A stretch of 64,000 nt of DNA from a virus: the IMG/VR virus record IMGVR_UViG_3300036846_000489, positions 11,089 through 75,088 of that record; one strand, given 5' to 3'. The translations under genes were made by a program, and so were the position numbers. Below, one piece after another: positions 28,200-61,979 of this stretch (position 1 is its first letter; every line of letters starts with the position of its first letter). The notes beneath the pieces are model-generated. The model did not search any database. It saw only the letters and a list, made by a program, of their open reading frames with translations, and had not been told where the DNA came from.

Positions 28200-28807
28200 C
28201 AGTGCAGCATCCGGTGGTTGCCGTCGTAGGCGATGTCGAACAGGTCGCGGTCGATCAGCCCGTTATCTTCATAGTATTTCCGCATCACCTCATTGGCCGC
28301 ACTGCGGGAGAGCCGCGTCGCATCGGTGTCCAGGCAGATGGTCTGAGCATATAGTATTTCCCCGTCTGCGGCGTCCGACCGAAGAACCATGGATTGCGTG
28401 GGAGCGTGGAACTTCACCCAATCGGGATACGGCTGCTTCATCTCCCCGTTCAGCATGTGGGTTTCCAGGACGCCATAAATACCATGAACGGTCTGCACCG
28501 CCCTGGCGCTCTCGCGCTTCGCCTGAATGGAAATCTGGCGGTTCACTCTGACCGACATCAGCCCGCCGACACACATCGGCTGAAGCTCCCGGCGGGTCTG
28601 CTGAGTGGCAATCATCAGTTCGAACTGCTCGTCCGGGTCCACGTTGCAATCAATCGCGAACATGATGATCGAGCGATATCGGCCCTGGGTATAATCCGCC
28701 AGGGTGCCGCCGTTGCTGAGAAAGTTCACGGTGGCACCTTCCAACGGCTGATTTCGCATCCTGACGTTGGCCGGGATGATGTGGTCGAGCAGGAAATCTC
28801 GGATCAT
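28199..28807 (-). CDS. Hypothetical protein
   Basis: Coupled to flanking genes; MIRDFLLDH start. Confidence 0.55.
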   Translation of the reverse strand: MIRDFLLDHIIPANVRMRNQPLEGATVNFLSNGGTLADYTQGRYRSIIMFAIDCNVDPDEQFELMIATQQTRRELQPMCVGGLMSVRVNRQISIQAKRESARAVQTVHGIYGVLETHMLNGEMKQPYPDWVKFHAPTQSMVLRSDAADGEILYAQTICLDTDATRLSRSAANEVMRKYYEDNGLIDRDLFDIAYDGNHRMLH

Positions 28808-29226
28808 GGCGAGAACTCCAACGTGCCGTCGGCGTGGACTATGGTGACGATCTTGCCTTGCTTTCTGGCGTATCGGATGGTTGCCCAGGTTCCCGACCGT
28901 GGCGAATGCGCTTCGTCCGAAGCGGGCGCGGCAATCAGTTCTTCGCTGAAATCGACGATGGTGTGATTTCTCTGAAGGTATTCCTGTTCGGGGTAGAGCT
29001 GGTCGAAATAGCCACACTCCACGGCACGGTGACGTTGGTTCTTGGGTGGGTGTCCAGCGACGAATATCCCGAGGCTGATAGCGATCCTGTGGGCCTGTTC
29101 GTCGGCACCGACACACACGCCGTGATGCAGCCATGCCGGAACCCGTGCCAAGAGAAGATCGGACAGAACGGCCTTCTGCACGTTCTTCATACCCTCTCGG
29201 GTGCCGGTGAAGCCAATATGCCTCAT
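28804..29226 (-). CDS. SLOG/DprA-like nucleotide-binding protein
   Basis: IGFTGTR..HHG.CVGAD..RN..IVD..SGTWATIRYA. Confidence 0.75.
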   Translation of the reverse strand: MRHIGFTGTREGMKNVQKAVLSDLLLARVPAWLHHGVCVGADEQAHRIAISLGIFVAGHPPKNQRHRAVECGYFDQLYPEQEYLQRNHTIVDFSEELIAAPASDEAHSPRSGTWATIRYARKQGKIVTIVHADGTLEFSP

Positions 29227-29477
29227 GATGACGCCACCAATCGTCTGGCATCCGATCCCTCGCTTTCCAGCGCGTTCTTCCCCGCCCGCGTGAGATCGAA
29301 GATCACCAGCCGCTTGTCGTCCGGGTCTTCTAGGGCACGCGCCCAGCCGCGCGCCACGAGGTTGTGGGCCTGCTTTCCCACCTGAGAGCGTGACAGGCCC
29401 ATCAATTCCCCGGCCTCGGTAGCTGATAGCGCCCCGTGCTGGTCGATCAGCGCCATCAGCTTCCGCGACGGCCTCAC
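29223..29477 (-). CDS. MarR-type winged-helix regulator
   Basis: LS..E..LSRSQV..L..RGW..DPDDKR..LT.AG. Confidence 0.75.
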   Translation of the reverse strand: MRPSRKLMALIDQHGALSATEAGELMGLSRSQVGKQAHNLVARGWARALEDPDDKRLVIFDLTRAGKNALESEGSDARRLVASS

Positions 29478-31000
29478 CCCAACTCTCCCTGCTTCTTGCC
29501 GAACGCTGCCGCCACGATGTCGAACGTCGGCTTGTCTTCCTTGTTCATCACCCTCATGCGTGGATACGCCGCATTCTTCGCCGCCTCGAAACCTTCCGTG
29601 TCGGTGATCCAATGCAGTTCGGCCATTCTCGCCTCGGCCCATTCCTTGTGGTCGCAGGCAGCGCCGATTGGCAGGATCAACTGACGTAGCCAGTCCGGCT
29701 TTGCCATCCCGCGCTTGGTCATGGCACCGGCAATAACCCTGACCGCCACCTGCCGGTAGAGGATTTCGGCGTCGGCCATGACCGACTTCTGGGCTTCCAG
29801 CCAGGACATCAGATATTCATCCTCCGGAAAATTCCCGATCAAAGACTTGACCCAGGCGCTCCACACCGGCCTCCCGTTGTTCATCGGCGGCTGCACCGTC
29901 TCAAAGGACAGCGGTGGACTTTCGTCTCCGCTGGTCTCCTTGCGCCACTCGTCCACGTCCTTGAGCAGCGGCGTGCGGGTCTTTCGTGCCGCAACCAGGG
30001 CGTCGGCGTTGTGGTGCAACAGGTTCTCTCTGGCCTCGGCTCCGGTCGCCGCGTTCCAGTATTCCTTGAACTCCCTTACCCAGCCGGCGACATCTGGGTA
30101 TAGCTCGCCGTCAGTCTCTCCCTCAGCGTCCCTCACCAAGAAATCGAACCTCTCCGGCGCGGCACTCAGACGCTCGCGCGCTTTCATCAAAGCCTCCCCT
30201 ATTTCCTTCTGCTTCCCGGCGTCGAGAGTGTTCACATTATCCCGCACCAGATCGACCAGAGCTTCCAGGTCTTCCGATGTTTTTGCATCAGCGAAGCCGT
30301 GGGCCAGCGCGCCCCACCACTGCGGGTTACGCTTGAGTATGTCTTCGACGCTCTTGGCCCAAACATTTCCCATCGACTTTTCTGATGGTGGCGGCGAGGC
30401 CGGCCCACGCTCCCGATGGGTTCCGTCCGTGTCTTCGCCCTTCACCACGATATTCAGCAGCGCGACGGTGAGATAGCGGATGGCAAAGGTCTGCGCGGCC
30501 CCGCCTTTCTGCTGAATACCCATGTAGGCATCTTTGTCGATTGGCTCCTGTTTCCTGGCGGTGAACGACCATCCGGTATCTTCGTGGATCAGTTCCCCCT
30601 CCACGATGATGTAGTCGGCGGTCTGCTCGATGGGCCGGAAGGTCAATCCGAACCCGTGCTTCGTCATGATCGGTCGAACCACTTCGTCGATGTCTTCCTG
30701 GGTGGCAAAGCCGTATTTTATGGTCCCCCCACGCTTCGTGACGGTATCCACCCTGCCCTTTTTCTCGATCTGCGGAATGTCGTGGTGCATCCGCACGAAC
30801 GCCTGTTTGGCGGCAATCTCCCGGTCGCGATCTTTGGTCCGCTCCCACAGGGTGGTCAGCCGCTCAAGCACCTCTATGTTTCCACTGGTGGAAGCTTGCG
30901 CCATCATGGTCATGATGGATGGCACGGCCTGTTCTACTACCTTCCCGTTCCCGGTGTGCGTGATGTTGATCTGCGCTTCGGATGTGTCTGTCTGGCTCAT
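29474..31000 (-). CDS. erf: ERF-family ssDNA annealing protein with long C-terminal extension
   Basis: YGFAT.EDI..VRP..KHGF..LIH..G..Q..G.A.TFA.RY..LNI..EDTDG. Confidence 0.85.
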   Translation of the reverse strand: MSQTDTSEAQINITHTGNGKVVEQAVPSIMTMMAQASTSGNIEVLERLTTLWERTKDRDREIAAKQAFVRMHHDIPQIEKKGRVDTVTKRGGTIKYGFATQEDIDEVVRPIMTKHGFGLTFRPIEQTADYIIVEGELIHEDTGWSFTARKQEPIDKDAYMGIQQKGGAAQTFAIRYLTVALLNIVVKGEDTDGTHRERGPASPPPSEKSMGNVWAKSVEDILKRNPQWWGALAHGFADAKTSEDLEALVDLVRDNVNTLDAGKQKEIGEALMKARERLSAAPERFDFLVRDAEGETDGELYPDVAGWVREFKEYWNAATGAEARENLLHHNADALVAARKTRTPLLKDVDEWRKETSGDESPPLSFETVQPPMNNGRPVWSAWVKSLIGNFPEDEYLMSWLEAQKSVMADAEILYRQVAVRVIAGAMTKRGMAKPDWLRQLILPIGAACDHKEWAEARMAELHWITDTEGFEAAKNAAYPRMRVMNKEDKPTFDIVAAAFGKKQGELG

Positions 31001-34801: not shown

Positions 34802-35293
34802 ATGACTGGCACAGAAATTGCTCTCGCGCGCACACCCCTTTCTTCTACTTCTTCTACCTCTAACAACCAAGATAATAATTACAATCCTTTTGATACCAAG
34901 AAAGGGAAGGGAAGACGTAGTGATGGAACTAATCCCAGAGCACTAGGAACCAACCCTAAAGCTCTCGGAACTAACCCAAGAGCATTAGGCACCAATCCAA
35001 AGAAAATTGGAATTATCGTTCCGCAGGACTGGCGTCCTTCCCAGAGTGCTTGGACCTTTGCCACCAAGCTTGGATTTGGGGAAAGGGAACTTGCCCAATT
35101 CATCCGCTACAACCGGCATAAAAGGTATCACGCATTCAAATGGCAATGGAATAAAATTTTCGTCGGATGGTGCAAGAAAATCCATCAGCGGAAGGAGGAA
35201 CGGTCGGCACAACCGACAGAGACACCGATGGGACAATTCGGCGGGTCATTGCTTGATGGGAGAAAACTCGGGATGTGGGAGACGGTGTGGTGA
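34802..35293 (+). CDS. Replication initiator/DnaT-like protein with GTNPRAL repeats
   Basis: P.DWRPS..F..Y..W..F..W; immediately upstream of primase-helicase. Confidence 0.5.
   Translation: MTGTEIALARTPLSSTSSTSNNQDNNYNPFDTKKGKGRRSDGTNPRALGTNPKALGTNPRALGTNPKKIGIIVPQDWRPSQSAWTFATKLGFGERELAQFIRYNRHKRYHAFKWQWNKIFVGWCKKIHQRKEERSAQPTETPMGQFGGSLLDGRKLGMWETVW
34925..35008 (+). repeat. 4 x 21-bp tandem repeat (GTNP[RK]AL)
   Basis: ggaactaatcccagagcacta / ggaaccaaccctaaagctctc / ggaactaacccaagagcatta / ggcaccaatccaaagaaaatt. Confidence 0.85.
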
Positions 35294-37062
35294 TCGAGAA
35301 GAACCTGTTCGACCTCCTGGATGAACACGGCATTCCCCGCCTCAAAAGCTACCAGCCCGGCTACACCGAGAAACTGATCTGCCCCAAATGCGGGGGTGGA
35401 AGAACCCGAGACCACTGCCTGTCCGTGACCATCTCCGACGATGGCACAAACGCCATGTGGCAGTGCCACCGTGGAAACTGCGATGGCTTCTCCGGCAAGG
35501 TGTTCGTCAAGGGCGGGCACTTCGAACCAAAGCCCAAGCCTCGCCCAGCCAATCCGTTCGCCGATGCCGAGGTTCCCCAGGATCAGCCTGTTTATGCGCC
35601 GCCGTGGTATTGGGACTTTTGGGCCAACCGGCACATCGGGAAAAAGACCCTCGACGATCTCGGCATCCATTTTTCAGTTCATCCCGTCTTAGCTGACAGC
35701 ATCGTCTTCCCGTATCGGTGGAAAGGGAGGCTGGTCAATCGGAAATTCCGATCCCATCCGAACAAGGACTTCCGCAACGACGCCGGGTCGCAGCCGACGC
35801 TGTTCAACGTGGACAGCATCGATCCCAAGGAACCGCTGTATTGGGTCGAGGGAGAGATCGACGTTCTGACCATGCACGAGATGGGCTACCCGCACGTCGT
35901 CTCGTTGCGCGACGGTGCACCGCAGAAGGTCGGCCAGGGCGACAAGCGGTTCGAGGCACTGAATACCCACGCCGACGCGCTGCACAAGGTCGGCACACAC
36001 ATCCTGTGTCCCGACGCCGACAAGCCGGGTGAGGCGTGGCTGGAAGAACTCAGCCGGCGTCTGGGCCGGCACAGGTGCAAGATCGTGCGCTGGCCTGCGG
36101 GGCGAAAGGATGCCAACGACACGCTCTGCATGGCCGACGACGATGAACGAAATACCATCGAGTATTGCACCTCCCACGCGCAGCGGTTTCCGCTTCAGGG
36201 CATCCGCGACATTTCCGAGCGGGTGATCGAACGGGCGTTCACCAGAAAGCAACCCGACGTTCTGACCCTCGGGGTCCAGTCCATCGACAGCACGCTGAAG
36301 TTTCCCGCCGAGGGAAAGTTGATCGTGGTGAGCGGCGTGCCGTCCCACGGAAAGTCCACGTTCATGCGCTTCGTGACGGTCAAGACGATCCAGCACTACG
36401 AACGGAAATGGCTGGTGTTCGTGCAGGAAGACGACTTCCACGACTACGTCATCGACGTGGCAAAAATACATGCCGACAAGATGTATTCCGAGGTGACCAG
36501 GGAAGACCGTGGCGAGGCCGGCGCTTCGTTCATGAACGGCGGTCTGCGGATTTTGATGTTCGACGGCGAGCGTGATCCACCAACCATCGACACGATCTTG
36601 GAGCGGGCACGATTGTCCATTCTTCAGGACGGCACCACAGACCTGTTGCTCGATCCGTTCAACGAACTGGAAGATGCCTACGAGCATGGCGACCAAAGCC
36701 AGACCCAGCACATCGGCCGCACGCTGCAACGGCTCAAAGCCTTCGCCAAGGAATATTCCTGCAACGTCTGGGTCATCGCCCATCCGGCCAAGCCGTCCAA
36801 CGGTGAGCGCCATCCACCGGATGGATATTCCTGTGCCGGCTCGGCGAATTGGGCCAACAAGCCCGACCTTGGTTTTTCGGTCTGGCGTCCCGGTCCAATC
36901 GGCGACGTGGAACTTTACGTCTGGAAGAGCCGCACCCAGCGATGGGGTAGCGCGAAGACAGTCGCGAAGGCGTGGTTCAACGCTTCGATTGGCACCTACC
37001 ACACACCCACACCGAAGGAGACCGAACAGGCACCAACAGACACACCCGGTTGGATCGACTGA
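35275..37062 (+). CDS. T7 gp4/Twinkle-type primase-helicase
   Basis: CPKC..CHR..C Zn finger, TOPRIM EGEID..D.D..G..KDAND, Walker A GVPSHGKST, DP.N..IAHP.K. Confidence 0.92.
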   Translation: MGDGVVIEKNLFDLLDEHGIPRLKSYQPGYTEKLICPKCGGGRTRDHCLSVTISDDGTNAMWQCHRGNCDGFSGKVFVKGGHFEPKPKPRPANPFADAEVPQDQPVYAPPWYWDFWANRHIGKKTLDDLGIHFSVHPVLADSIVFPYRWKGRLVNRKFRSHPNKDFRNDAGSQPTLFNVDSIDPKEPLYWVEGEIDVLTMHEMGYPHVVSLRDGAPQKVGQGDKRFEALNTHADALHKVGTHILCPDADKPGEAWLEELSRRLGRHRCKIVRWPAGRKDANDTLCMADDDERNTIEYCTSHAQRFPLQGIRDISERVIERAFTRKQPDVLTLGVQSIDSTLKFPAEGKLIVVSGVPSHGKSTFMRFVTVKTIQHYERKWLVFVQEDDFHDYVIDVAKIHADKMYSEVTREDRGEAGASFMNGGLRILMFDGERDPPTIDTILERARLSILQDGTTDLLLDPFNELEDAYEHGDQSQTQHIGRTLQRLKAFAKEYSCNVWVIAHPAKPSNGERHPPDGYSCAGSANWANKPDLGFSVWRPGPIGDVELYVWKSRTQRWGSAKTVAKAWFNASIGTYHTPTPKETEQAPTDTPGWID

Positions 37063-37763: not shown

Positions 37764-38386
37764 TGGCCAAGGGAGGCAGACCAGCCGTTCCGGACGAACT
37801 GGTGCCGGCGGCGATCCGGATGCTGATGACCTACGGTCCCACGGCGGTCATGGAGGCGCACTGGCGTGATCCGGATGACACGACACCGAACGCGGCACGG
37901 AACGCCAGAGAGGTCAGGGGGTTCCGGTCTTACGATCCGCTGCGGTGGTCGCGCCGCCGGCATGGTGACGCCAGTTCGATCACCGAGCTTCACATCCATG
38001 CCGCCGACCGGCTTCGACACGCCGCCGACGTGGCACGCCTAGGAGGGCTTCCAGGGCCGTTGCCAGGGTGGGGCGCCACCCCTACCCAGGCCGGCCGCTA
38101 CAGCCCGTCCACGGGCTTCCCCGCCGCCGCACGGGCCATGTTGCGGGCCGACCGGGAATACCGGAGAGCCATGAGCATTCTGATACCGTCCGAACAGGAG
38201 ATCATCGTCGTGGTCGTGCTGAGAAACGTCAGCATTGCTGCCTGGACGCGGCTTCGAAGATACCTCGGGGACCGGACCCTGCCGCAGACCGAGACGGCCA
38301 AGCTGGTTGGCGCTTTGGACAAGCTGGTTGACCACTACGACACCGAGATCAAGGAAGACATGGCATTCGGGAGGGTCGAGGTATGA
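37763..38386 (+). CDS. Putative late transcription regulator (Q/antiterminator-like)
   Basis: IT..AA.RL..; VV..S..W..L..ALD.L..HY; end of replication arm. Confidence 0.45.
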   Translation: MAKGGRPAVPDELVPAAIRMLMTYGPTAVMEAHWRDPDDTTPNAARNAREVRGFRSYDPLRWSRRRHGDASSITELHIHAADRLRHAADVARLGGLPGPLPGWGATPTQAGRYSPSTGFPAAARAMLRADREYRRAMSILIPSEQEIIVVVVLRNVSIAAWTRLRRYLGDRTLPQTETAKLVGALDKLVDHYDTEIKEDMAFGRVEV

Positions 38387-38682
38387 AGCTGCCGACCAGC
38401 GCTTCCCAGCCGGTCATCGATCTGCTGCGAGAGATCAATGAAACCGCCAATCGGAAAAAGGTCGAAGACCTGCGGGATCAGATCAACGATATCCTGGTCG
38501 ATGAGAACCGATGCGACAGCATGTTTGCCATGGTTCTTGTGCTGTCGGGAATGGCCATCGATCAGCCGGAAGAGAACTGCCAGGAAATCATTCTGCAATC
38601 ATTCTACACGCTCGCGAGACAGGTCATCTATTTGTGGGAAATGAAGCAGGACGGGAACCATCGCCGGAATTTCCAACCGTAG
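38383..38682 (+). CDS. Hypothetical protein
   Basis: ATGA coupled. Confidence 0.5.
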   Translation: MKLPTSASQPVIDLLREINETANRKKVEDLRDQINDILVDENRCDSMFAMVLVLSGMAIDQPEENCQEIILQSFYTLARQVIYLWEMKQDGNHRRNFQP

Positions 38683-38833
38683 ACGCCCCGTGACGCCCCT
38701 GTGTGGCCAGAAAATGCTGTAGAACACTGGAAATATCGGATAATTCCGAAACTCTGCACGACAGAAGGCGCTGGACAAACCGAAAAAATGCGCCGAGAAT
38801 AATCAGGAAGGACACGCAACCAGGAGAACGAAC

Positions 38834-39367
38834 ATGAATAAGAAGATGCAGGTTCCGTGGGTAAACCAAGCTACGTTGACCAAGGCCGAAATGGAGAAGG
38901 TTCGCACGAATTGCGAACCGCGTCGGCCAACGATGTGCCTTAATACCAAGATGGTGAAGCTCGGTGCCGAGAAAAAGGGAAGGATCGTGCGTGGAGTAAG
39001 CACCTTGAATGGGTTCGTTCATTGGTCTGAACAAGAGAAAGACCTTACGTGGCATATGTGGCGCGCGAAATTGCTGCTTCCGTATGCGGAGAAGATCGAT
39101 GTCTACGATACGGACGGCAAGCAATTCACATTGCCAGCAAAGCCGCCGTTTGGTCCGGTGGAATACCGGGGGCCGTGTCGGCCACGCCGGGGCACGCCAG
39201 AGGGTGCCAGATTGGCCAGCAAGAAATTCCAGGAAAGGAAGGCGGCCGGATTGGCTCAGTCACGGAAGAAGTATCGCAATTTGCAAGCTCCCGAGGTGAT
39301 CAGGATGGGAGAGATGGAGCGGGAAAGGGAAAGCTTGCCAGAGGCCGAGCTAGTTCCTACCTTCTGA
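38834..39367 (+). CDS. Basic hypothetical protein
   Basis: SD AGGAG; possible promoter TGGACA-17-GAGAAT at 38772-38800. Confidence 0.6.
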   Translation: MNKKMQVPWVNQATLTKAEMEKVRTNCEPRRPTMCLNTKMVKLGAEKKGRIVRGVSTLNGFVHWSEQEKDLTWHMWRAKLLLPYAEKIDVYDTDGKQFTLPAKPPFGPVEYRGPCRPRRGTPEGARLASKKFQERKAAGLAQSRKKYRNLQAPEVIRMGEMERERESLPEAELVPTF

Positions 39368-39368
39368 T

Positions 39369-39600
39369 CCCCTTCGGGGTGTGGTGTCCTTCCACAGAGA
39401 GCCGGGCGATCCCGTCGCTCGGCTCTCACCACATCTGGCGCGAGAAGGGGCTTGACCGCGCAAGATGAGCGAAGGCATGCTTTCCCTATCGTCGCGGGAT
39501 CGCACACCTTGGAGCCAGCTATGTGACCTGCTAGCGCAGCATTATGAATGGATACGGAATTGGTGTGCTACCTGTTGGGCATCCAGCGACGCGGGTAGAA
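39369..39600 (+). ncRNA. Candidate structured RNA with anti-RBS bulge
   Basis: 82-nt hairpin 39369-39450 with G.U pairs on +, plus a domain sharing 20/21 nt with the early leader; lies in a 387-bp gap between convergent genes. Confidence 0.55.
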
Positions 39601-39754
39601 GCCGGGATAGTCTTTTCCTTCTTGCCACCACTCACGAGCAAGTTTCGGCGCTCTCAGTAGGGCCGCGTCGCGTTCTTCCCCTAGAGACAGCAGGTGGAAG
39701 TAGGCTCTGAATACCAAGGCACGATGTTCCCCCACCCGCATGTCCAGGTGGCGG

Positions 39755-41181
39755 TCAGTCTTTGGAAGCATAGGGCTGCACCTTTTGTCCGAGGAAATCG
39801 AGGTCAAGAACATTCAGGTTGTGGCGTTTGCACCAGACCTGAATACCCTGTTGCGTCCAGCCGACCTCAAGCCGTGACCACGTTTGCGGCGAGACGCCGG
39901 CGGGCATTTCCTTCAGGCACCTGGCACAGTGCATGAACTGGAAGATGCGGTTGGGATGGTCGGTCATATCGGACCCTCCGCATCACACCACACACACCGG
40001 CCGTCTACACCGTAGCGGTGCCTTCCGCTCGGCACACGGCAGGAAGTTTCTGATCTCACCGGCTTCGGTTCGACCAGATCGTCCACCTTGTGCTTGATGT
40101 ATGCCTGATCGTCGGAGAACGTGACCCACGAACGAACGTCGGGGAAGATACGCTGTCCGCATTCAGGGCAGAAGTTCGGCAGCCGGGGATTAACCCAGCA
40201 TAGCAGACAGATGCAGCATTCTGTGCGAATGAGCCGGAAGTGCGCTCTGGTCAGTGCCATTCCATTACTCCCGTCTGCTGCATCAGCCAGTGCTGGACGA
40301 CGACGTGGCGGTAGTGCCACATCGCCGGGTAGAAGGTGGTTGTGGTCATCAGAAACAGCTTCATTGTTTCAACCTCTGGCTGACATTGATCTTGGTGTCC
40401 GGACCAATACCGTCCTTTAGGGTTTCCGCGCAGTGTGCTTCGGTTTCGCCGGAGAAAATCATGACATCGACCGGCAGCCCAACTTCGCGACCGATGATGC
40501 GGATGAAGCTGTCACCCGGCTCTTTGCGGAACTGGTCCAGGTTGGCGAAACTCAGGCCGATCACCAGGATGCTTTTTCCGGTTCCGTCTCTCGCAATTGC
40601 TTTGATCATGAGGATTTCCTGTCCAGCTTGATGTCGTGGGTGCGGTGGCCGTATGATCTACCGGTTCTTATGGCATCGACCAGTTCCTCCATCAGTTCAA
40701 CAAACTCATGAGGGGGTGTGGTCGAGACCACGCGATTTTTCTTTTCTCCCGCCAGTCGATAGATCAGCAGCCAGTCACCGTCATCGCCTATTGCCTTGGC
40801 GAGAAACTGACCTACGGCATCAGCTATGAATTCATCCTCTTTGTCTTCGGTCATTTGGTGTCCTTTTCCTGTTTCCAGCGAAGTGCTGGTGCAGAGAGCC
40901 ACGCCCCACGGGACGCGCTCCCTGCATCAATGCTTCGTCTCCGCAGCGTCTTTTAAGGCGGTGAGTTTGAGGATTAATTTCACTAGCATCGTCAATAGGC
41001 TCGACCGAATTTCTGCGGTGTCCTTGTCGTCTTCCCCATAATGCCCAGCAACCCATATGGCGGTTAGTTCGGCGAGAACTGCGCCCTGTATGGCTGAGGA
41101 CTTGCCAGCCAGGATCGGCTTGATCTGACCGATCAGAGCGATTATTTCCTCTACGTCTTTCTTGGCGAAATCGGTCATCAA
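39755..41181 (-). CDS. Cluster of small early genes (39755-39967, ~39964-40260, 40361-40609, 40606-40854, 40927-41181), two with CxxC motifs
   Basis: Several ATGA-type overlaps; AAGGACACCAAATG start at 40854. Confidence 0.55.
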
Positions 41182-42221
41182 CGCACCTCGTAGTGGGAAC
41201 GGTTGGACTTGAAGCTCTTCCGCTGTTCCTCGGTAGCATTGACCAGTGTGTCCGCGATCCAGATCGACCGACCCGTGGCGTAGTTTCTCGGGTGTCCCAT
41301 GCGGATGTGGAACTGCGGACTTGCGTGGTGCCCGCCCAGACCTTCGCTCCGCTCCCGATGACCGCGTGCCAGAATAGCCGTGACATACGGCTCACTAAGC
41401 ACCCGGTCGTAGTGCGGGATCGGCGGCTTCCGGCTTTTCATCCTGGCACGTTGCAATTTCTCCGGTGGCCGAACTGTCTCCCGATCCACCCCGCGCGTGG
41501 CGAGGATCATCAGGCAACAGATAATCGGGTCACCGATATTGCAGCTTGCCGCCTCGTGGGCCGATTGTCCGTTGTTCTGCAAGGCACGGAATTCATCGTC
41601 GGCGACGAACCGCAGAATAGACGGTGCCACTTGGGAAATATGGTCAACGCCAAGTTCCGGTGGCGGCACCATGAACATGCCACGGTCACCGATTACCAGG
41701 AGTTGCTGGTAACCGAGCGTCAAGGGCTGAAGCTCGCAGACTTCGAAGGTCGTGTCGGAAGGACGATTGACCAGATAGACCGCTATCGCCTTGGTTTCTG
41801 GCAACACCACTGGCTGAGGGCCTGCGCCCTTCCAGATGAGGTTATGATCCCAAGTGTGGTAGCAAATCCACGGGTCGGAAAATGGGAAACCCAAGGCTCC
41901 CATATTCCACATCTTCCCGCCACGCTTCGCGCATTCCGAGATGACCAAGTTCGGCAAGTGACCGAAGTCGATGACCCTGCCGGCTGTCACCGCATCGCGG
42001 CACCGAAGGGAGATCAATTCAACCTCCCTCTGTGTCGAGGCGTATTCACGGCTCTCGGGAAGCAACCGCATGTTCGATGACTGGAAACCGGTGACGCGAA
42101 AATCGAGCACCGCGTCCCGCATCTGCGTGACGGTTGGTCTCCACTCCATGTCCAGCGACATAGTTAGCTCCTGCCCGAAGATCACCTGACCTTCGGGAGT
42201 TCTCATTAGTCTCGGTTCCAT
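41178..42221 (-). CDS. Hypothetical protein with C-terminal H.SP..H.R.GH.R motif
   Basis: Start at AAGGACACCAAATG (42221). Confidence 0.7.
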   Translation of the reverse strand: MEPRLMRTPEGQVIFGQELTMSLDMEWRPTVTQMRDAVLDFRVTGFQSSNMRLLPESREYASTQREVELISLRCRDAVTAGRVIDFGHLPNLVISECAKRGGKMWNMGALGFPFSDPWICYHTWDHNLIWKGAGPQPVVLPETKAIAVYLVNRPSDTTFEVCELQPLTLGYQQLLVIGDRGMFMVPPPELGVDHISQVAPSILRFVADDEFRALQNNGQSAHEAASCNIGDPIICCLMILATRGVDRETVRPPEKLQRARMKSRKPPIPHYDRVLSEPYVTAILARGHRERSEGLGGHHASPQFHIRMGHPRNYATGRSIWIADTLVNATEEQRKSFKSNRSHYEVR

Positions 42222-42291
42222 TTGGTGTCCTTCTCTGTGTCCCCTGGTCGGGGCGAGGACAGCACCGATGCCGGCGCTGCCTTCGTCCAGA

Positions 42292-42909
42292 TCAGCGAAT
42301 ATCAACCTTTTTCGCCGCGCCTTGCTCAAGAGCGGCTTTGAGTATCTGTTGGGCGGCATCGCGTTCTTCGAAGGTTGGCTCCCTTTCCGGCAGAACCTCG
42401 GCAAAACTTCCCATTATGAAACTCTGCGGGTCAGAGGTCTTTTCATCCTTTACCCCGGTGCATTTGCCTTTCGCGTTTCTTACGACTTCGGCTTGTGCCA
42501 CGGCGGTAAGGCGTTCACCGGTATCGTCGTTGCGCCATATGATCTGTGCTATGACGACTTCTTGGCGATCTTCCCGTTGGCTCGGCATGACCTCGGGATA
42601 TTCTGGGTCCGGTTCTCCTGGCTTGCTGCTCGCAATCCAGGCTTCGCCGATGAAGGCGACGGCGAACCCGTTGTCGGCTATACAGATGAGCCGGGCCATT
42701 TCCCGGTGTCCGCGTTTTTCCTTGTCGTCGTAGTTGTTCATTCCGCCGACACCTATCGGGGTAACTCTATGGGCGGCATGAACCACGAATAGCGGCATAA
42801 GGTGTCCTTCTTTGGTGATACACCGCTTGGCATATTCTAGATCAAGCCGAAGTTGTTTGGCATAATCGAACTTTCCCTTGGCGATGTTTGGTCCGGTTTT
42901 TCTCGGCAT
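42292..42909 (-). CDS. Hypothetical protein
   Basis: AAGGACACCAGATG start; EAW..PS..DR.EV motif. Confidence 0.7.
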   Translation of the reverse strand: MPRKTGPNIAKGKFDYAKQLRLDLEYAKRCITKEGHLMPLFVVHAAHRVTPIGVGGMNNYDDKEKRGHREMARLICIADNGFAVAFIGEAWIASSKPGEPDPEYPEVMPSQREDRQEVVIAQIIWRNDDTGERLTAVAQAEVVRNAKGKCTGVKDEKTSDPQSFIMGSFAEVLPEREPTFEERDAAQQILKAALEQGAAKKVDIR

Positions 42910-42982
42910 CTGGTGTCCTTCCTGTTCTCCCCTGGTCGGGGCGGTGACAGCCACGGAATATCCTTGGCTGCCCCCGTCTGGA

Positions 42983-43597
42983 TCAGGGCAAATACCTCTC
43001 AGCGACGTTCTCGCGCTTAATGAACTTCAGTAGGGCTGAATAGAATTCTTCCAGCCGTTGCTCGCCGTCCTGTTGCGACAGCCGTTGTTGCCAATGCTCC
43101 AGGAAATCCCAGGCATTGATCAACGCTCTTTCCCGGTCATAGAACATGAGCGGCCGCCAGCAGTAATCCAGCGACAATTCCGACCACCAGGAACAGGCTG
43201 AAGCCGCCCTGTCCTGGCCGTTCCCGATCCCGCCTTCTCTCGGTGATTTCGATGTTGACCACCACGCGCCGGGGCGGCCCGCCTGAAGGCGGGGGAGGAT
43301 CGTTGTGGAAGGAATTGCCGTCCAGTAAGTAGTCGAATGAGCCACGCTTCGGCTCCTTGTTCTTCAGCATATGCCCAACTCCTTCTTGGTCCGATCAACC
43401 AGATTTTCCCACTCCTTGCAGGCATCTTCCAGCCAGTTGATTGACTTGGCCGATCCCTGAAATTCGTAGGTATCGCGATCAAAGTGAAGACCGTTGAGCA
43501 CCTCTCTTGCCGCCGCTCTCATCGAACAGGCAACATCATACATCAATTGCTTGTTCGCTTTCATAGCGACGGCCTGATCTTCAGTTCTTTTCGGCAT
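42983..43597 (-). CDS. Three small early genes (42983-43147, 43137-43370 with TM helix, 43364-43597)
   Basis: Overlapping starts/stops; motif RBS at 43597. Confidence 0.55.
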
Positions 43598-43702
43598 GGG
43601 TTTGGTGTCCTTCTCTATTCCCCGACCGACTGGTCGAGGCGACAACAGCACCGCGCAAGGCGGGCTGTTCCCGTCAGGATCAGCACGACAGTCTGGCGAC
43701 CG

Positions 43703-44314
43703 TCAGTGGTATCTCCGGTGGTTGCCGTCGGCGGACCAATTTACTTCGTGCCAGTCCGCGACCGGCCCAGGCACGGTCAGAACCGGCACGGCCAATGCCC
43801 CGATGATCCCAGCGGACGCCCTGCCCTCTACACCGGCCAGGACGATCAGCGTGCCACGAGTAAGGAGCGTGGCCTTTTGGTTCGGGAACAGAACCGGCTC
43901 CTTGGTATTATCGAGGCGATCAAGGCTGCTTTCGAATTCGGCAATTCCCTGTTCCCCCAGGCGGGTTGCCAGGGTGACAAGGGCGCCGTGGCTGTCAGCT
44001 TGAAGAATGAAAGACGCCATGGTTGACCACAGTGCTGCCCGGTCTTCCAGGTCGGTATTATTTATCTCTGGGACCGGGTCAGACCACCGAAGCATGTCGC
44101 AGATCATTCCCCGGTTGGGGGAGGCAAATACCACATGCCGCCCATAGCAGGCCGGGAGTGCTAGTTTCCCAGCTTCCTCTGAAGCGATGGCATCGACAAC
44201 CTCCTGCAAGGTCGGAATACAGCGACGCAGTATTCGCTTCGTGCTCGGCTTTTGCGCGCGGCCTTTCACCACATCCTCTAAGGTCATGGTGGCGACGTGT
44301 TCTCCTAGTGTCAT
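43703..44314 (-). CDS. Hypothetical protein
   Basis: AAGGACACCAACCCATG start. Confidence 0.65.
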   Translation of the reverse strand: MTLGEHVATMTLEDVVKGRAQKPSTKRILRRCIPTLQEVVDAIASEEAGKLALPACYGRHVVFASPNRGMICDMLRWSDPVPEINNTDLEDRAALWSTMASFILQADSHGALVTLATRLGEQGIAEFESSLDRLDNTKEPVLFPNQKATLLTRGTLIVLAGVEGRASAGIIGALAVPVLTVPGPVADWHEVNWSADGNHRRYH

Positions 44315-44391
44315 GGGTTGGTGTCCTTCTCCGTCCTCGACTTCTGGTCGAGGCGGCGACAGCGCGGCTTCCCGTGCTGTCTCCGTCCAGA

Positions 44392-45549
44392 TCAGGGTCG
44401 TCTCCTGATGACGTCATAATCGTCGTGAACAACGAAGCCGCGTGAGGCGTCGCCGCGTTCATGCTCCGGTCGCCACCAGCGTTTGCCGCCACAGTCCGAA
44501 CAGACCCAATTATCCGGATCGTCCGGCCCAGCGTCCGGCCACGGCAGCCATTTCGGTGGACCGTGGTTCGGTTCGAAGTTGTGGACGCACCCGGCGATCC
44601 TGGAATAATCGCGGGCTTCCTTGTTGTGGCAGTAGTGACCACGAACTTCGTGCCGGCGACGCGGCACAGCGTCACCCGCCGGGGTGCCGATCAGCCTTAA
44701 GGTCGGCACCGGATCGATCTCTATGGTCACCGTGGTATGTGCCATGTAGGCCCGGAACTTGCCGCTGATGAAGCCAGGGGCATTCGGCAGAGAGTTCCGG
44801 TAGCTGGTCAGCGACGGCCGGTTGAGCATCAGCAGGATCGCGATGATCGTCCGAAAGTCGCCAATCGTGCCACGTGCCATGGACGCCATGCCGCCGTCAG
44901 CGGTCCATTTATGGTAGGATGGATGGGCCGGATTGAGCGGCGTCTGTTCCATGACGTTGAACTCTCGCAGCACGCGCCGTTCGTCGTTGGTCAGGTTGTC
45001 CCAGGTTGATCCCCACATAAGCATGTCGAGGCTCATCCGAGAGCACCCGCACAGACGGGCGAATTCCAACTGATCGTCTATCGGCCATTCGGTTCTTAGT
45101 CGATACTGCATTCCGGTCACCTGCGGGTCAGTGACCGGGTTGGCCACCGTGCCGCCGCAGATGGTATTGATCCGATTATGGTCGATCAGATACCCGACCG
45201 TGTGATCGGCACTGTCAAGTTCGCCATACCAGCCGGTATTTTCATACCGTCCTGGATCAGCGTCGCGTAGCACCTTCCAGTAAATCCACGAAGGCCACTC
45301 TATCCAGGTGACCTCGAAAGGTGGTCTGGCGAAGCCGTGTTCCCGCACCAGAAGTGAAGGAATATCACGCACGACCTGGGCAATACGCTCCGCGGCCCGC
45401 TCGTCAAAGACGAACTTATGGGCGGCACGCATGGAGCGTTGAAGCATGTCCATGGTTTTCGGATGGACGAACCGCTCCTTGGCCGAAAACTTATGAGCCA
45501 AAAAGCGGTCAGCCAGTATTGGCCCCCGCTTGGTAGGTGTTTTGGCCAT
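44392..45549 (-). CDS. Hypothetical protein with RRH.VRGH..W..H.RG C-terminus
   Basis: AAGGACACAACATG start; RPPF..WIE motif. Confidence 0.7.
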   Translation of the reverse strand: MAKTPTKRGPILADRFLAHKFSAKERFVHPKTMDMLQRSMRAAHKFVFDERAAERIAQVVRDIPSLLVREHGFARPPFEVTWIEWPSWIYWKVLRDADPGRYENTGWYGELDSADHTVGYLIDHNRINTICGGTVANPVTDPQVTGMQYRLRTEWPIDDQLEFARLCGCSRMSLDMLMWGSTWDNLTNDERRVLREFNVMEQTPLNPAHPSYHKWTADGGMASMARGTIGDFRTIIAILLMLNRPSLTSYRNSLPNAPGFISGKFRAYMAHTTVTIEIDPVPTLRLIGTPAGDAVPRRRHEVRGHYCHNKEARDYSRIAGCVHNFEPNHGPPKWLPWPDAGPDDPDNWVCSDCGGKRWWRPEHERGDASRGFVVHDDYDVIRRRP

Positions 45550-45624
45550 GTTGTGTCCTTCTGTTCTCCCCGAGCATGTCTGATCGAGGCGGAAACAGCC
45601 ATGCTGCTTCCGTCCGGATCAGGC

Positions 45625-45650
45625 AAAGAAAAGGGGAGCCGAAGCTCCCC
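45625..45650 (-). terminator. Intrinsic terminator inside the early array
   Basis: GGGGAGC-TTCG-GCTCCCC-TTTTCTTT on -. Confidence 0.8.
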
Positions 45651-45681
45651 ACAAAGTCTGGGTCGGATATTTTCTGCCGGT

Positions 45682-46320
45682 CTACGCCGACCGACGCCGC
45701 AACAGGGTCAGGCCGATCAGGCCCATCCCGAGGATCACAAGCGAGGCAGGCTCCGGCACGGCCGTCGCCGAAGCACTGATGTCACCCGCAAAGCTGGCAT
45801 TGAAGGCGCCAATTGTGCTGCCGTCCAAGGCAAGGGTGGGCAGCAGATTGGTGAACGCCAGATTGAACGAGCTTGGGGGCACCAACTCGTTGGCCGGAAT
45901 GACGTTGCTGGCCAACGTGAGGCTCTCCGGGGGGTTGTTGACATTGACTGTCAGACCCGGCCCACCATTTGCCCCAAAGGCGGCATCGGTGAACGTGCCA
46001 GAGAGGAAGTTACCCGTGCATCCGGCAGCACTTGAGATACAGAAGCTTCCCGAGTAATGCTGGATGATGTTGCCCGCTACCGTGATTGCCGCATCGATAG
46101 AATGCGCGGAGAGGGTCATCATGGCGCCAGGAATGGCACCGAGAATACCGCCGCCCAGCAAAGCTAGCTGGTTGGTGTAACTGATATTCGTCACGGTGCC
46201 ATTGTCGGTCGCTACCACGGTATTCGTCGTGGCCTCCTGAGCGAAAGTCGTAAGCAAGGCGGCTTCCGCTACTGTCGGCAAGGCCACGGCGATGGTGGAG
46301 GCAAGCAAAAGTGCCTTCAT
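45682..46320 (-). CDS. PEP-CTERM sorting-domain surface protein
   Basis: Signal peptide MKALLLAST..AEA; C-terminal VPEPASLVILGMGLIGLTLLRRRSA. Confidence 0.92.
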   Translation of the reverse strand: MKALLLASTIAVALPTVAEAALLTTFAQEATTNTVVATDNGTVTNISYTNQLALLGGGILGAIPGAMMTLSAHSIDAAITVAGNIIQHYSGSFCISSAAGCTGNFLSGTFTDAAFGANGGPGLTVNVNNPPESLTLASNVIPANELVPPSSFNLAFTNLLPTLALDGSTIGAFNASFAGDISASATAVPEPASLVILGMGLIGLTLLRRRSA

Positions 46321-46430
46321 CTGGTTTCCTTTCGGGTTGGTGTGAACACTCAGTCTCCCCGGCTTTGCTGGCCGAGGCCGGAACGCCCGCCACAGTTTCC
46401 TGTGGGGACGCTCCGGTCAAGGTCAGATTT

Positions 46431-46640
46431 CTACCGTCTCCGGTGGCTGGCATCTATAGGTTCGATGTCGGTCTCAACCTGACGGGGATCGCGGCCCTGT
46501 TGTATCCGCGATATCCTGGCGGGCAGGATGATATCCCGATTGCAGTCGTCGCAGCACCGGCCATGGTTGATCGGCTCCGCGTTGTTCCCGAACCGGGTGT
46601 ATGGCCGCCCGCAGATCGTGCAGGCTCCGTTCTCATCCAT
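46431..46640 (-). CDS. Zn-finger protein
   Basis: CTICG..GNNAEP..GRCCDDCN. Confidence 0.7.
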   Translation of the reverse strand: MDENGACTICGRPYTRFGNNAEPINHGRCCDDCNRDIILPARISRIQQGRDPRQVETDIEPIDASHRRR

Positions 46641-47136
46641 CCTTGTTCTCCTCTTCCTTGCGCGGCATTCCGGAAAGAAGCTGACCGTAGGTGTGGAGCA
46701 CCTCGGTCACCGGCTTGCCGTCTCGGAAGAACGTGATGGTTCCCGCCGCCTCTGAGGCGCGAGAGTTGCCCCAGGCGTCGAACTCGGCACGATCCATCCA
46801 AATGATGTTCCGACGCAGCCATTCGACGGTGACCACCGGATCGACCGTGTAGTAGCCTCCCGGCACGTCTTCGTCTTCGACCTCTTCGCCCACAACCACA
46901 CCGTTGCCGGCCATTGGCTGGTCGGTGCGGAATGCGCAGAAGAAAAAGTGCATGGTTGGTTTCAGCAAGCCTTCCTCGTCCACGAACATCACATCTCCAG
47001 ACGGGAACCGAAAGGCCGCTTCGATCCAGCCACCGATATAGTCACCGACGGTAGGAAGCTCGCCTTCGGCACTTTGTATGCGATATTCGACCTCACGGAT
47101 TTCCCGCTTCACGGCATCAATGAGAATTGCCTTCAT
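46633..47136 (-). CDS. DUF3846-like protein
   Basis: KAILID..IGGWIE..FVDEEGL..AGNGVVVG. Confidence 0.75.
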   Translation of the reverse strand: MKAILIDAVKREIREVEYRIQSAEGELPTVGDYIGGWIEAAFRFPSGDVMFVDEEGLLKPTMHFFFCAFRTDQPMAGNGVVVGEEVEDEDVPGGYYTVDPVVTVEWLRRNIIWMDRAEFDAWGNSRASEAAGTITFFRDGKPVTEVLHTYGQLLSGMPRKEEENKDG

Positions 47137-47220
47137 GGGTATTTGGTGTCCTTCCATTCAGTTTCCCCAGGCTGGCTGAGGCGAGGACAGCCACCGGCCT
47201 GAGCCGGCGCTGCCTTCGTC

Positions 47221-48357
47221 TTAGTCAGGGTCTATCGGCTCGTCGTGATCGTAGTTCGGATCGGTCAGAACCTCTGGCCGGAACGCGGCCAGCTTCTCCT
47301 TTTCGCATTTCCCGCACATGTATCCGAGAGGAATTCCCCTCGCATCCAGTCCGACCCACGGCCACTCGCCGCTGCCGCACGGGCATTCAGTCAGCATCGC
47401 CATCATGGTTCTCCGTCGTGGCCAACGGCTTTCTGGTCCGCCACGCCATCGACGGTGCGATGGCGTCCGGCGTATTCCCACTGGACCTGATGGAAGCGTT
47501 CGATATTCGCGATGTCACGAATATCCAACTTGAACCCCAGAGCCAAGTAGATTAGTTCCAAATCGCCTTGGTTGAGCCGGTCGAGGTTGGGCAAGGTGGC
47601 ATGAGGGATGCCACAGTGCTCAATGATCCACTCACGGATGACGCGGACCAGTTCGTATTTGTCTGGCCGCATCTTGGGAGGAAGCGACATCACGCTGCCT
47701 CCCGAGGGTCTTCAGTATTTATCGGCATTTGGTGTCCTTTCCAAAGTCCTCGGCGAACTGGCCGAGGCGGCGGTAGCCACGACAAGCGCAGCTACCCCCG
47801 TCCAGGTCAGATCAACTTGATCTCGACAGAAGTGACCGTGTAGGGGCCGTTGCAGCCAAGGCCGGGAGAGCCATACACGGCCTTCCCGTGGGTCAGTTCC
47901 CAGAAGCTTTTCTGCCGAGCCTGAAGGTAGACATCATCAAGCTCACCTTCGCAGATCGACTTTGTCTCCCAGGTCTGGCCCTTGGCAGCGGTGCCACGAA
48001 GGGTGCAGTTGTAGAGGCGGATCATGCCGGCCTCCTTATGAACTCTCGGCCCGGCCTGGACCGAATACCATGGATCAGATCGTCATGTTCTGTAGCGAAC
48101 CGAACCATGGCACGGCGAAGGTCCAGCATCACGTCGCAGATTTTCCGCAGGCGATCCACCTCTTTCTGATCCATCGGAAACTCCGACAACTGCGCCATGG
48201 CATCACAGAGGTTCGATACCATCGCGTTCATCCGGCCCAGGATCAGGTCTTTCTGATCGGTCTCTTTCTGGTATTTCGCCATCAACAAAGCCATGCTGGA
48301 ACGCGCTTCTCGCGCTTCAGCCTTCGCCTGTTGCAGCGGTGTAGGGTTTCGAGGCAT
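47221..48357 (-). CDS. Small early genes (47221-~47406 Zn-finger, 47403-47690, 47807-48025, 48022-48357)
   Basis: CPCGSG..DARGI..C..C; coupled starts; motif RBS at 48357. Confidence 0.6.
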
Positions 48358-48432
48358 TTGGTGTCCTTCCGTTCTCCAGCGCAAACGCTGGTGCAAAGAG
48401 CCACGGGCCATTGCTGACCCGCGCTCCTTGCA

Positions 48433-48903
48433 TCAAGGTTTGTTTGCTTCTCGCGCTATCCGCTCGTCTTCCTTCGTCGCATAATGAGGAAGTTCGCGCA
48501 GAGAAAGGCGGGGCCTTCCAGGCTTTTTTGGCCCAGGTGTTCTTTCCCGTTTCTTTTCCGGTGCTCGCTTTCCCAGCCTATGGGCTTTGGTAGGCGCAAA
48601 AAGTGTGAGTTTGCCGTAGACAAACCGTCCTTCGGTATCGAATTGACGAATGACTTCTGGCCAGTGGTTGACGTATCTCAGCCAGTGTTTTGCCCCTTCT
48701 TCTAGCACATAAGCTCGGTATTTATAGACTATCGCTGCCCGAGCGCCTTCGCGCATTAACGAACGAGCCCAAGGGCAGTCGCACGGATCGTTGGGGCAGG
48801 CGCCCTTGATATCAACAAGAAGAGCCACGACAGGTCTATTCTTCTTCGCGTCCACTATGGGTAGTCCTAGAAAGGCTGGATGGTTTCTCATCATGGATGC
48901 CAT
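48433..48903 (-). CDS. Basic hypothetical protein
   Basis: AAGGACACCAAATG start; DP..C..A..W.RY..FD motif. Confidence 0.65.
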   Translation of the reverse strand: MASMMRNHPAFLGLPIVDAKKNRPVVALLVDIKGACPNDPCDCPWARSLMREGARAAIVYKYRAYVLEEGAKHWLRYVNHWPEVIRQFDTEGRFVYGKLTLFAPTKAHRLGKRAPEKKRERTPGPKKPGRPRLSLRELPHYATKEDERIAREANKP

Positions 48904-48996
48904 TTGGTGTCCTTCTCTGTTTCCTGGTCCGGGTCTGGCCCAGGCGGAAACAGAAACGGCCCCCGAAAGGGCCGCTCTGCTACCGTCACGGTCAGA

Positions 48997-49263
48997 TCAT
49001 CCCCGCCGCGTGATGGTCACGTCGTATCCCTTGTCCACGATTTTCTGGATCAGAATTTCCAGGTCTTCGTGATCGTCGGGGAAAAGCATGTGCAACAGCT
49101 TTTTCACCTTGGCGGGACGCGGCTGGGCGTTGCCGTTCTCGATCTGCGACAGATAGCCATTGGACAATCCGGCACGTTCCGCGAGAGCGGTCTGAGACAA
49201 ACCGCGTTCCTCACGGGCTTGCCTGATCTTTTCGCCCAGGTCGGGGCTGTCGAAATTCACCAT
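48997..49263 (-). CDS. XRE-family HTH regulator
   Basis: LGEKIRQAREERGLSQTALAERAGLSNGYLSQIENG. Confidence 0.9.
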   Translation of the reverse strand: MVNFDSPDLGEKIRQAREERGLSQTALAERAGLSNGYLSQIENGNAQPRPAKVKKLLHMLFPDDHEDLEILIQKIVDKGYDVTITRRG

Positions 49264-49265
49264 GG

Positions 49266-49481
49266 TCAACCTCCTGTCTTCCACCATCGGCCGTGATCGC
49301 CCAGAGTGTATTTCTGGCCGACCCCGACGCCGAGGCCAAAGCCGAACAGAAGATGGCATCTCAGGCACATCATTGCCCACGGCCCCCGACGGGTTGCTCC
49401 ATCAACAAAGTCGGTGTTGAGGGAGCCGCGGCAGATGGCACAGGCAACAGGCTTGCTGCCTTGCCAGTAAAGCTTGGTCAT
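49266..49481 (-). CDS. Zn-finger protein
   Basis: C.IC..FVDG.T..GPWA.MC..C..G.GLG.G.GQKY. Confidence 0.7.
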   Translation of the reverse strand: MTKLYWQGSKPVACAICRGSLNTDFVDGATRRGPWAMMCLRCHLLFGFGLGVGVGQKYTLGDHGRWWKTGG

Positions 49482-49566
49482 TTGGTGTCCTTTCCGTTTC
49501 CCCCGATCCGCTGATCGAGGCGGTGGCAGCACCGCACAGCGGCGGGCTGCCCCCGTCCGGATCAGA

Positions 49567-50121
49567 TCATTCCATCCAGAAACAATTATACCGTTCGCGT
49601 TTCGCCATCCGGCACTTCAGGTTGTTCGCCTCGGCGATCCCTCGCAGATAGGCGAACCACTTCGCACTGGTCTGACCCGTGTGATCGCTGAGTTCCTTTC
49701 TCGAAACCCCCTGCGGCCGGCGAGATTGCTCGACTGCCCAATCGACGAACCCGGCGGGCAGTTTGGAGAGGCTGGGACCGCCCTTGATCTCCGGCCCCCG
49801 GTATTCCCCAGGCTCGACTTCTTCCGGCTTGGGAGAAGCCTCAGCGGCCTTCCTGGCAGCCTTCTTCGGCGCCGGCGCTTTCTTCGCGGTCGGTGCCGCC
49901 GCTTTCTTCTTCTTCGCAGCCTCGATACGCACGACGTTGCTTCCTTCATCGTCAGGAAGCGGACGATCAATCAGGCACCACTTGCCTTCAGCATTCTGTC
50001 CCGGCATGTGGTCGGCACCGAGCAGACGCAGACCGGAGCGCTTGAACTCCTTCTCCATGTCTTCCTTGCTGTCCCATGTCCGAGTTTGTGCCTCGACAAT
50101 GGTCATGCGTGTAGCGGCCAT
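49567..50121 (-). CDS. K/A-rich protein with DUF3489-like winged-helix domain
   Basis: AAKKKKAAAPTAKKAPAPKKAA linker; RPQGVSRKEL..TG. Confidence 0.6.
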   Translation of the reverse strand: MAATRMTIVEAQTRTWDSKEDMEKEFKRSGLRLLGADHMPGQNAEGKWCLIDRPLPDDEGSNVVRIEAAKKKKAAAPTAKKAPAPKKAARKAAEASPKPEEVEPGEYRGPEIKGGPSLSKLPAGFVDWAVEQSRRPQGVSRKELSDHTGQTSAKWFAYLRGIAEANNLKCRMAKRERYNCFWME

Positions 50122-50231
50122 GAATGTGTCCTTCTGTCCGTGGTGGAAATTCCCGGGACTGGCCCAGGCGGAAAAAGCGTGGGGCAGAGGTTTCCCCCTG
50201 CCCCGAGTTGTTTCCGTCACGGTCAGTCAGA

Positions 50232-50651
50232 TCAGGCGCGCTTGCGCACTGCGATCTTGGTCAGCTTGAACACCGGCTTGCCGCCAGAGACGCTGTAGGC
50301 GAGGCCGTTGCTCGTGGCCAACCGTTCTACCCATGGCCGCCACGCCACTTGGTTCTGTCCGGCTCGGCGCGCCAGCATGGCCCGCGTTACCCCTCCCGGA
50401 CTGGACGCCATCTCCAATACCATCTTCGCGAAATCCTTCGGCAGGATGGTATCGTTGACCGGCGGCATCGGCGTTCTGGCTTTTCTCGGCGCTCTGGCTT
50501 TTCTTTCTGCCCGAGGCTTCCGAGCCGACTTCTTCGCTTCCCGGCCCGGTTTCGGGCCTTGACGCCCCCCGGCCACTACCTTGAACTTCTCTGGCACCGC
50601 AGCCATGCGGGCTGAGGCGCTGTTCTTTTTCTTGATTACGGTCTTAGCCAT
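50232..50651 (-). CDS. Basic protein with DUF3489-like domain
   Basis: SSPGGVTRAML..AG..AWRP. Confidence 0.6.
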   Translation of the reverse strand: MAKTVIKKKNSASARMAAVPEKFKVVAGGRQGPKPGREAKKSARKPRAERKARAPRKARTPMPPVNDTILPKDFAKMVLEMASSPGGVTRAMLARRAGQNQVAWRPWVERLATSNGLAYSVSGGKPVFKLTKIAVRKRA

Positions 50652-50762
50652 TGTCTTAACCCTCTTGTTCGAAGACGCACGCCCGCAGTCGGGACGTGCC
50701 CCCGGCATACTGGCCGAGGCCGCAGCACCACCACGGTTTCCCGTGGGGTGCTCCGGTCCGGG

Positions 50763-52792: not shown

Positions 52793-52798
52793 TTTAAG

Positions 52799-61977: not shown

Positions 61978-61979
61978 CA

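Follow-up and report, generated by a model that had tools for sequence, protein, structure and literature searches.

The genome of a soil virus carries the same 21-nt sequence, in inverted orientation, in the non-coding stretches at the two ends of a minus-strand gene array, which raises the question of what two such copies, 12.8 kb apart, could be doing. An earlier note on this DNA had offered two answers, namely that the copies belong to two paralogous convergent ncRNAs or that the 5' and 3' ends of a 13-kb transcript pair like pre-rRNA stems. From a comparison with the available relatives we propose, with moderate confidence, that the copies could be the strands of a long-range RNA helix by which the protein-coding array's 5' leader is joined to its 3' trailer, in the manner of an rRNA operon. 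Computed throughout and based on two genomes, such pairing is probable rather than certain.

The phage and the two ends of its array

The virus under study (G000) is a tailed phage, represented by a complete 75,088-bp soil virus record with terminal repeats; the window, the whole stretch of 64,000 nucleotides that was analysed, comprises its bases 11089-75088. Terminase (60583-61977), portal (61962-63524), tape measure (15807-17975) and tail fibres are recognisable, as are an Erf-type annealing protein on the minus strand (29474-31000) and a primase/helicase (35275-37062). No phage GenBank record matches the genome at the DNA level, and at the protein level only distant cyanophages do, with 38% identity. 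The plus-strand replication genes end at 39367 and are followed by the array of ~28 small genes (39568-52111, minus strand), which runs opposite to both of its flanks. Each array gene has a standardised RBS cassette, and most have a hairpin of ~20 bp upstream. Neither tRNA nor rRNA was found in the 64-kb window, and the DNA enclosed by the repeat pair is protein-coding. None of the ten largest array proteins has a transposase or recombinase domain; HTH families are matched by one of them and DUF3846 by another. The complete genome was found to encode neither a serine or tyrosine recombinase (PF00239, PF00589; controls worked) nor RNase III.

Several features of the array were observed in their own right. 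Eleven intergenic hairpins between 42244 and 51651 (minus strand) extend over ~22 positions and begin at the TGA stop of the upstream gene (CTGAYC...YCAG), with ~16 positions Watson-Crick paired and the mismatches at fixed positions. These mismatches, 17 G·U against 24 A·C, show no strand preference; the hairpins may be RNA processing sites or may act at the DNA level. A 385-aa array protein (44392-45549, minus strand) has no Pfam domain, displays conserved Cys/His and Trp columns and has more than 100 metagenome homologues and 30 IMG/VR loci, the closest homologues being 80% and 69% identical; the depositors of Planktothrix phage Pag-Yong1 annotated the homologue encoded there, of 38% identity, as an anti-CRISPR protein. 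The arrays of the distant relatives found via this protein are short and leave hardly any gap at their ends, which makes them unsuitable for comparison. A signal peptide and a PEP-CTERM-like tail are common to one array protein (45682-46320, minus strand) and to the protein that diverges from the array promoter (52974-53639, plus strand). In soil run X2, one contig fuses 38138 to 53866 with three letters between them; it may stem from a relative without the whole array, leader and neighbours, or may be a contig mis-laid at 80% likeness.

The sole strong promoter-like site between 38000 and 57000 lies at the head of the array. It is of the sigma-70 type (52827 to 52799, minus strand; TTGACA, 17 nt, TG-TATGAT; 11 of 12 matches with TG), and from it we infer a transcription start near 52792. 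The leader then measures 680 nt, with the head copy of the repeat at about +400 to +445, and 52112-52973 holds no convincing ORF. At about +50, after a GC hairpin (52776 to 52759), the leader contains the boxA-like word GTTCTTTGACA (52731-52741, minus strand), the one match to GYTCTTTRACA in the window, where 0.06 are expected. This word and GCTCTTTGACA of the related phage G001 both have a G at position 8 and agree 10/11 with the boxA consensus GYTCTTTAANA (PMC5725501), a consensus of gamma-proteobacteria which may not be that of the host. Each of the two genomes has the word once, in the array-sense leader strand, and the head copy follows ~340 nt downstream of it in G000 and ~480 nt downstream in G001.

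Further down the leader, a conserved block (52219-52245, minus strand; 26 of 27 positions identical in G001) is the complement of the standard RBS of the array, AAGGACACCAAATG, and could mask the RBS of the first gene. Between this block and the first RBS lies a match to the type-P1 twister ribozyme (RF03160; 52132-52195, minus strand), which covers the full model and is sub-threshold at 32 bits vs a cut-off of 67.2, with an E-value of 8e-5 in a 901-nt search. It retains the cleavage-site A, GCC in L2 and AAGCC in L4, and its T1 pseudoknot triplets, UGC:GCA where the consensus is CCC:GGG (PMC5408937), amount to two compensating double changes that the model is unable to score. Twister models gave no match in the G001 leader. 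If active, the predicted element could cut at 52191/52190 and thereby detach a leader of ~600 nt from the message. The minus-strand leader also contains two canonical plus-strand terminators (52410-52430 and 52759-52785) upstream of the plus-strand gene at 52974, which may stop antisense transcripts leaving the array.

At the other end, the tail copy starts a few bases past the stop of the last minus-strand ORF (39568-39813), for which no homologue was found in the relatives and which may therefore not be a gene. The base of the trailer, GCACACC (39562-39568, minus strand), starts at the last stop-codon base of this ORF; in G001 and in L050, a metagenome contig from a third relative, CAYACCAA stands directly after the last stop codon. 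Array-sense terminators occur inside the array (50204 to 50181 and 45650 to 45633), and no canonical terminator follows the tail copy in G000. A block of ~45 nt (39450-39495) is common to the tails of all three phages and adjoins the stretch that holds the trailer strand, which is different in each of them. As a candidate plus-strand promoter (TTGACC, 18 nt, CATGCT; also given as CAtGgT), the block could drive antisense transcription across the tail copy and into the array.

The inverted repeat and its equivalent in a relative

The repeat itself was confirmed: CAGCATT[A/G]TGAATGGATACGG at 39537-39557 (plus strand) and 52348-52368 (minus strand) is identical at 20 of 21 positions in inverted orientation. 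In array-sense RNA, the head copy is thus the second block of the leader strand, and the tail copy, present there as its complement, the second block of the trailer strand (39537-39557, minus strand). CTGCT[A/G]GCG indeed stands 5' of both copies, as had been noted, abutting the 21-mer at the tail (39528-39536) and separated from it at the head (52382-52390) by a leader-only insert of 13 nt (52369-52381, minus strand). These are the first blocks, CTGCTGGCG of the leader strand (52382-52390, minus strand), which pairs with the trailer block at 39528-39536 (minus strand; CTGCTAGCG on the plus strand) with one G·U. The extra hairpin described for the leader copy is formed by the 13-nt insert together with its flanks (GCTGGC/GCCAGC). 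The ACACC/GGTGTG stem said to enclose both copies exists at the tail (39505-39509 with 39562-39567) and not at the head, where the predicted fold has no enclosing stem and only GCGTGTGG (52340-52347, minus strand) follows the motif on its 3' side. In the predicted duplex structure, the GUGUG of this element pairs with the trailer CACAC and extends the helix over a small internal loop. Both A/G differences between the copies become G·U in minus-strand RNA, as can be read straight from the sequence.

When up to three mismatches are allowed, the 21-mer has two copies only, in the window as well as in the whole 75,088-bp genome, and none in 100 shuffles; up to six mismatches add only two further matches, coding and unrelated. 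Among all pairs of intergenic regions of at least 120 nt in G000, the repeat is the best inverted match, with a score of 18 and the inverted runner-up at 14, and the score of the tail region against the head region was reached by 0 of 300 dinucleotide shuffles and by 2 of 330 other genome windows. One more ungapped inverted repeat of equal score exists genome-wide, in coding DNA, so that the 21-mer core alone is only near the top of the chance range. The significance of the repeat is carried by its placement and flanks and not by the core alone. A gapped local alignment at low gap cost gave no useful information.

Beyond this genome, a 17-mer scan of IMG/VR returned 29 matches, all in unrelated families with different flanks, and the 19-mer gave 2 chance matches only in the genomes of 185,579 species (GTDB). 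Two further candidates were considered, neither of which fits well. Terminal inverted repeats of an IS or transposon do not fit outer flanks that are unlike (CTGCTAGCG vs GCTTACACG), the lack of a transposase domain in the ten largest array proteins and a 19-mer that is not spread. Paired antitermination sites of the nut/put type do not fit a locus with one clear promoter only, nor a motif absent from G001 and L050.

IMG/VR contains one comparable phage, G001 (75,005 bp), which is collinear with G000, has a 64% identical primase and differs in the gene content and order of its array. In this database the last conserved array protein was found in G001 only, and so were the conserved tail and head words, a shorter tail word giving two unrelated chance matches; L050, the sole contig from the scan with the last conserved array protein, provides a tail only. 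The absence of the motif from relatives had been named in the earlier note as a sign against its reading, and taken literally this is what was found, since neither G001 nor L050 contains the 21-mer. Yet G001 has replaced both strands together, which is what an RNA helix predicts.

In the same two places, G001 has an inverted pair of its own (tail at r1 28805-28833, head at r1 42196-42258). It consists of blocks of 11 and 17 nt, both unique in the 75-kb genome, with a 35-nt hairpin between the blocks in the leader copy only and one A/G difference between the copies; its chained score of 23 was reached by 0 of 300 shuffles and 0 of 302 genome windows. The two phages hence have a common build with unrelated letters, namely two complementary blocks and an extra hairpin on the leader side only, while the non-coding DNA around the pairs has diverged beyond alignment. 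In both, the base of the helix would lie where leader GUGUG meets trailer CAYAC beside the stop codon. The tail copy of G001 takes up the 29 nt from the last stop codon to 12 nt before a canonical array-sense terminator and is therefore located in the 3'UTR of the array mRNA. Its head copy overlaps the conserved anti-RBS block, which in G001 is thus part of the leader-trailer pair. With G001 as the one relative having both ends, the replacement of both strands counts as one whole-helix replacement rather than as a series of independent changes. The G001 leader region also shows, by eye, a direct repeat of ~35-40 nt (r1 ~42120-42160 and ~42630-42670; L045).

It is against this comparison that a lack of function has to be weighed. 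The pair could have been left behind when a segment was duplicated in inverted orientation or when modules were exchanged at the array borders, which are prone to rearrangement, as the different gene content and order of the G001 array illustrates, and the one chance repeat elsewhere in the genome equals the ungapped core in score. We consider this unlikely, since two related phages have different unique pairs in the same places and with the same build despite diverged surroundings, and since neither the 19-mer in GTDB nor the 17-mer in IMG/VR is spread beyond chance matches and families.

A proposed leader-trailer helix and its competitors

The copies of any inverted repeat can pair on either strand, which leaves the direction of the G·U pairs as the one feature favouring the array strand. 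At each of the three positions where copies differ, of which two are in G000 and one is in G001, a leader G faces a trailer U in array-sense RNA, and the antisense would have an A·C mismatch. If, as we estimate, each difference had a chance of about one third to fall in this direction without constraint, three of three is suggestive only. The predicted array-sense helix of G000 comprises 9 and 21 bp with two G·U, extended by 5 bp, and has the 13-nt hairpin bulged out on the leader side. Its duplex energy amounts to -57.4 kcal/mol, compared to -47.5 kcal/mol for the antisense, while the corresponding values for G001 are -42.1 and -40.3 kcal/mol. Upon co-folding of the whole leader with the trailer, the G001 pairing persists, the antisense there being as good as the sense, and G000 forms 48 leader-trailer pairs over a wider span, which may or may not include the 21-mer helix. 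In predicted length, both helices (9+21(+5) bp in G000, 11+17 bp in G001) are of the rRNA type, for which ~25-40 bp are typical.

These observations bear on the first of the two initial answers. Two paralogous convergent ncRNAs are not borne out: a covariance-model search with Rfam 15 gave no match over either copy, at the gathering score for the window or at E<=1 for both regions; neither copy folds locally any better than shuffles on either strand (z from -0.1 to -1.2); G001 and L050 both lack the motif; and the tail copy of G001 is confined to the 29 nt between stop codon and array terminator. A wider form of this idea has the copies as same-sense versions of a cis element read from both sides of the array, be it nut/put-like, a protein-binding RNA motif or paralogous sRNAs, with the sense transcript coming from the head promoter and the antisense transcript from a possible promoter at the tail. 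The tail block of the three phages would suit it in resembling a plus-strand promoter (TTGACC, 18 nt, CAtGgT) that fires through the tail copy, and the plus-strand terminators at 52410-52430 and 52759-52785 suggest antisense transcripts crossing the leader. We nevertheless hold it to be very unlikely: the motif is not kept in either relative, it lacks both an Rfam match and a fold better than shuffles, the G001 tail copy lies past a hairpin terminator when approached from the putative tail promoter, and a protein site would not accept an insert, 13 nt long in G000 and 35 nt in G001, in just one of its copies.

The same inserts weigh on explanations at the DNA level. Inverted repeats serving homologous recombination, for instance by the Erf-like protein that the phage encodes, could flip the 12.8-kb array, and gene conversion would keep the copies alike; a flipped array would make 33-64 kb co-directional, and maintenance independent of the sequence would also account for the different pair of G001. 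The homology is however very short, being split into 9+21 and 11+17 nt by the 13- and 35-nt inserts in one copy, and neither a serine nor a tyrosine recombinase is present. In two soil samples, the contigs that span both sites, those from a variant strain among them, show one arrangement only, with no strand-changing joint among those listed for 38000-54000, which is weak evidence as contigs drop rare forms. Since the common G·U direction of all differences is left unexplained as well, we regard recombination as quite unlikely. A pair of operators, at which a phage DNA-binding protein such as the HTH protein at 48997-49290 would loop or silence the array, is highly improbable. One XRE-type HTH protein is indeed encoded in the array, but the internal dyad of the motif is only 4 bp, neither site is at a promoter, one lying ~400 nt past it and the other at the 3' end, one copy is interrupted by an insert, and both sites are wholly replaced in G001.

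The second initial answer, pairing of the transcript ends like pre-rRNA stems, is supported by the equivalent pair in G001, by three of three G·U and by the boxA-like word in both leaders, but it is unproven. A leader-trailer helix could operate as follows. The array would be transcribed from the promoter at 52827 to 52799, producing first a leader with the boxA-like word at about +50 and subsequently the head copy. When the polymerase has arrived at the array end, the emerging trailer would pair with the leader, which a boxA/Nus loop may have held near the polymerase, an arrangement suggested earlier for rRNA operons. Host RNase III might then cut the double-stranded stalk so formed, or the stalk might act as a clamp that protects the ends of the message; alternatively, helix formation might release the anti-RBS block. 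To our knowledge, a pairing span of 12.8 kb is far beyond the bacterial cases described, and end-to-end pairing of bacterial mRNAs has so far involved single genes only. Tethering of the leader would make such a span feasible and could additionally help the polymerase past the internal terminators.

Taken one step further, the phage might co-opt the rRNA transcription and chaperone machinery of its host for a protein operon. The boxA-bound Nus complex would tether the leader over 12.8 kb, pairing would take place only once the whole early array has been transcribed, and the looped message would then be trimmed by RNase III or protected at its ends, rendering the helix a signal of completeness. 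We put this forward tentatively and consider it rather doubtful in its entirety. If the 12.8-kb operon is closed by end pairing as rRNA transcripts are, phages would rely on co-transcriptional folding in the style of rRNA for the control or processing of their long early messages, a non-ribosomal transcript would be at hand for testing the tethered-leader Nus model, and unique complementary ends of transcription units could be a simple signature for operon boundaries in uncultured phages.

Comparison with known systems

Leader-trailer helices are a hallmark of rRNA maturation, and in phage T7, RNase III processing hairpins lie between early genes. The array resembles T7 in that a long early transcript would contain double-stranded elements between or around its genes, and differs from the local hairpins of T7 in that the G000 pair is 12.8 kb apart. 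As in invertible segments (Hin/Gin/Cin, shufflons), short inverted repeats flank a DNA segment; unlike there, no recombinase gene is present, the relative has a repeat of different sequence, an insert interrupts one copy and no inverted form was seen in the contigs, which stem from two samples and drop rare variants. In the icaR mRNA of Staphylococcus aureus, the 3'UTR pairs with the 5'UTR to give a double-stranded target (PMC3868564), an arrangement comparable to G001 in particular, where the leader strand overlaps the anti-RBS block. However, icaR is a single gene of ~1 kb with pairing on the Shine-Dalgarno sequence (PMC3868564), whereas the G000 helix would span a whole operon, with the first RBS 240 nt downstream of it.

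The closest parallel is provided by rRNA operons, in which leader-trailer helices of 25-40 bp are interrupted by hairpins of the leader and require structure rather than sequence (PMC10250234), and in which a boxA-bound Nus complex has been proposed to tether the leader to the polymerase up to the appearance of the trailer (PMC10250234; PMC5725501). The phage pair is unlike them in enclosing ~28 protein genes over 12.8 kb instead of a structural RNA of 1.5-2.9 kb. Its leader strand lies ~340-480 nt from the boxA-like word and not 18-19 nt, the distance of boxC from boxA in enterobacterial rrn operons (PMC10250234), and the word departs at one position from the gamma-proteobacterial consensus, which may not be that of the host. 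What the phages have in common with rRNA operons (PMC10250234; PMC5725501) is that complementary stretches flank a long transcript body and would form a helix of ~30 bp with a hairpin on the leader side, that this structure, judging from the one relative, may be kept while its letters change, and that a boxA-like word stands in the leader after a hairpin. As in rRNA operons, the phage helix would also be long enough for a substrate of RNase III, which might cleave it.
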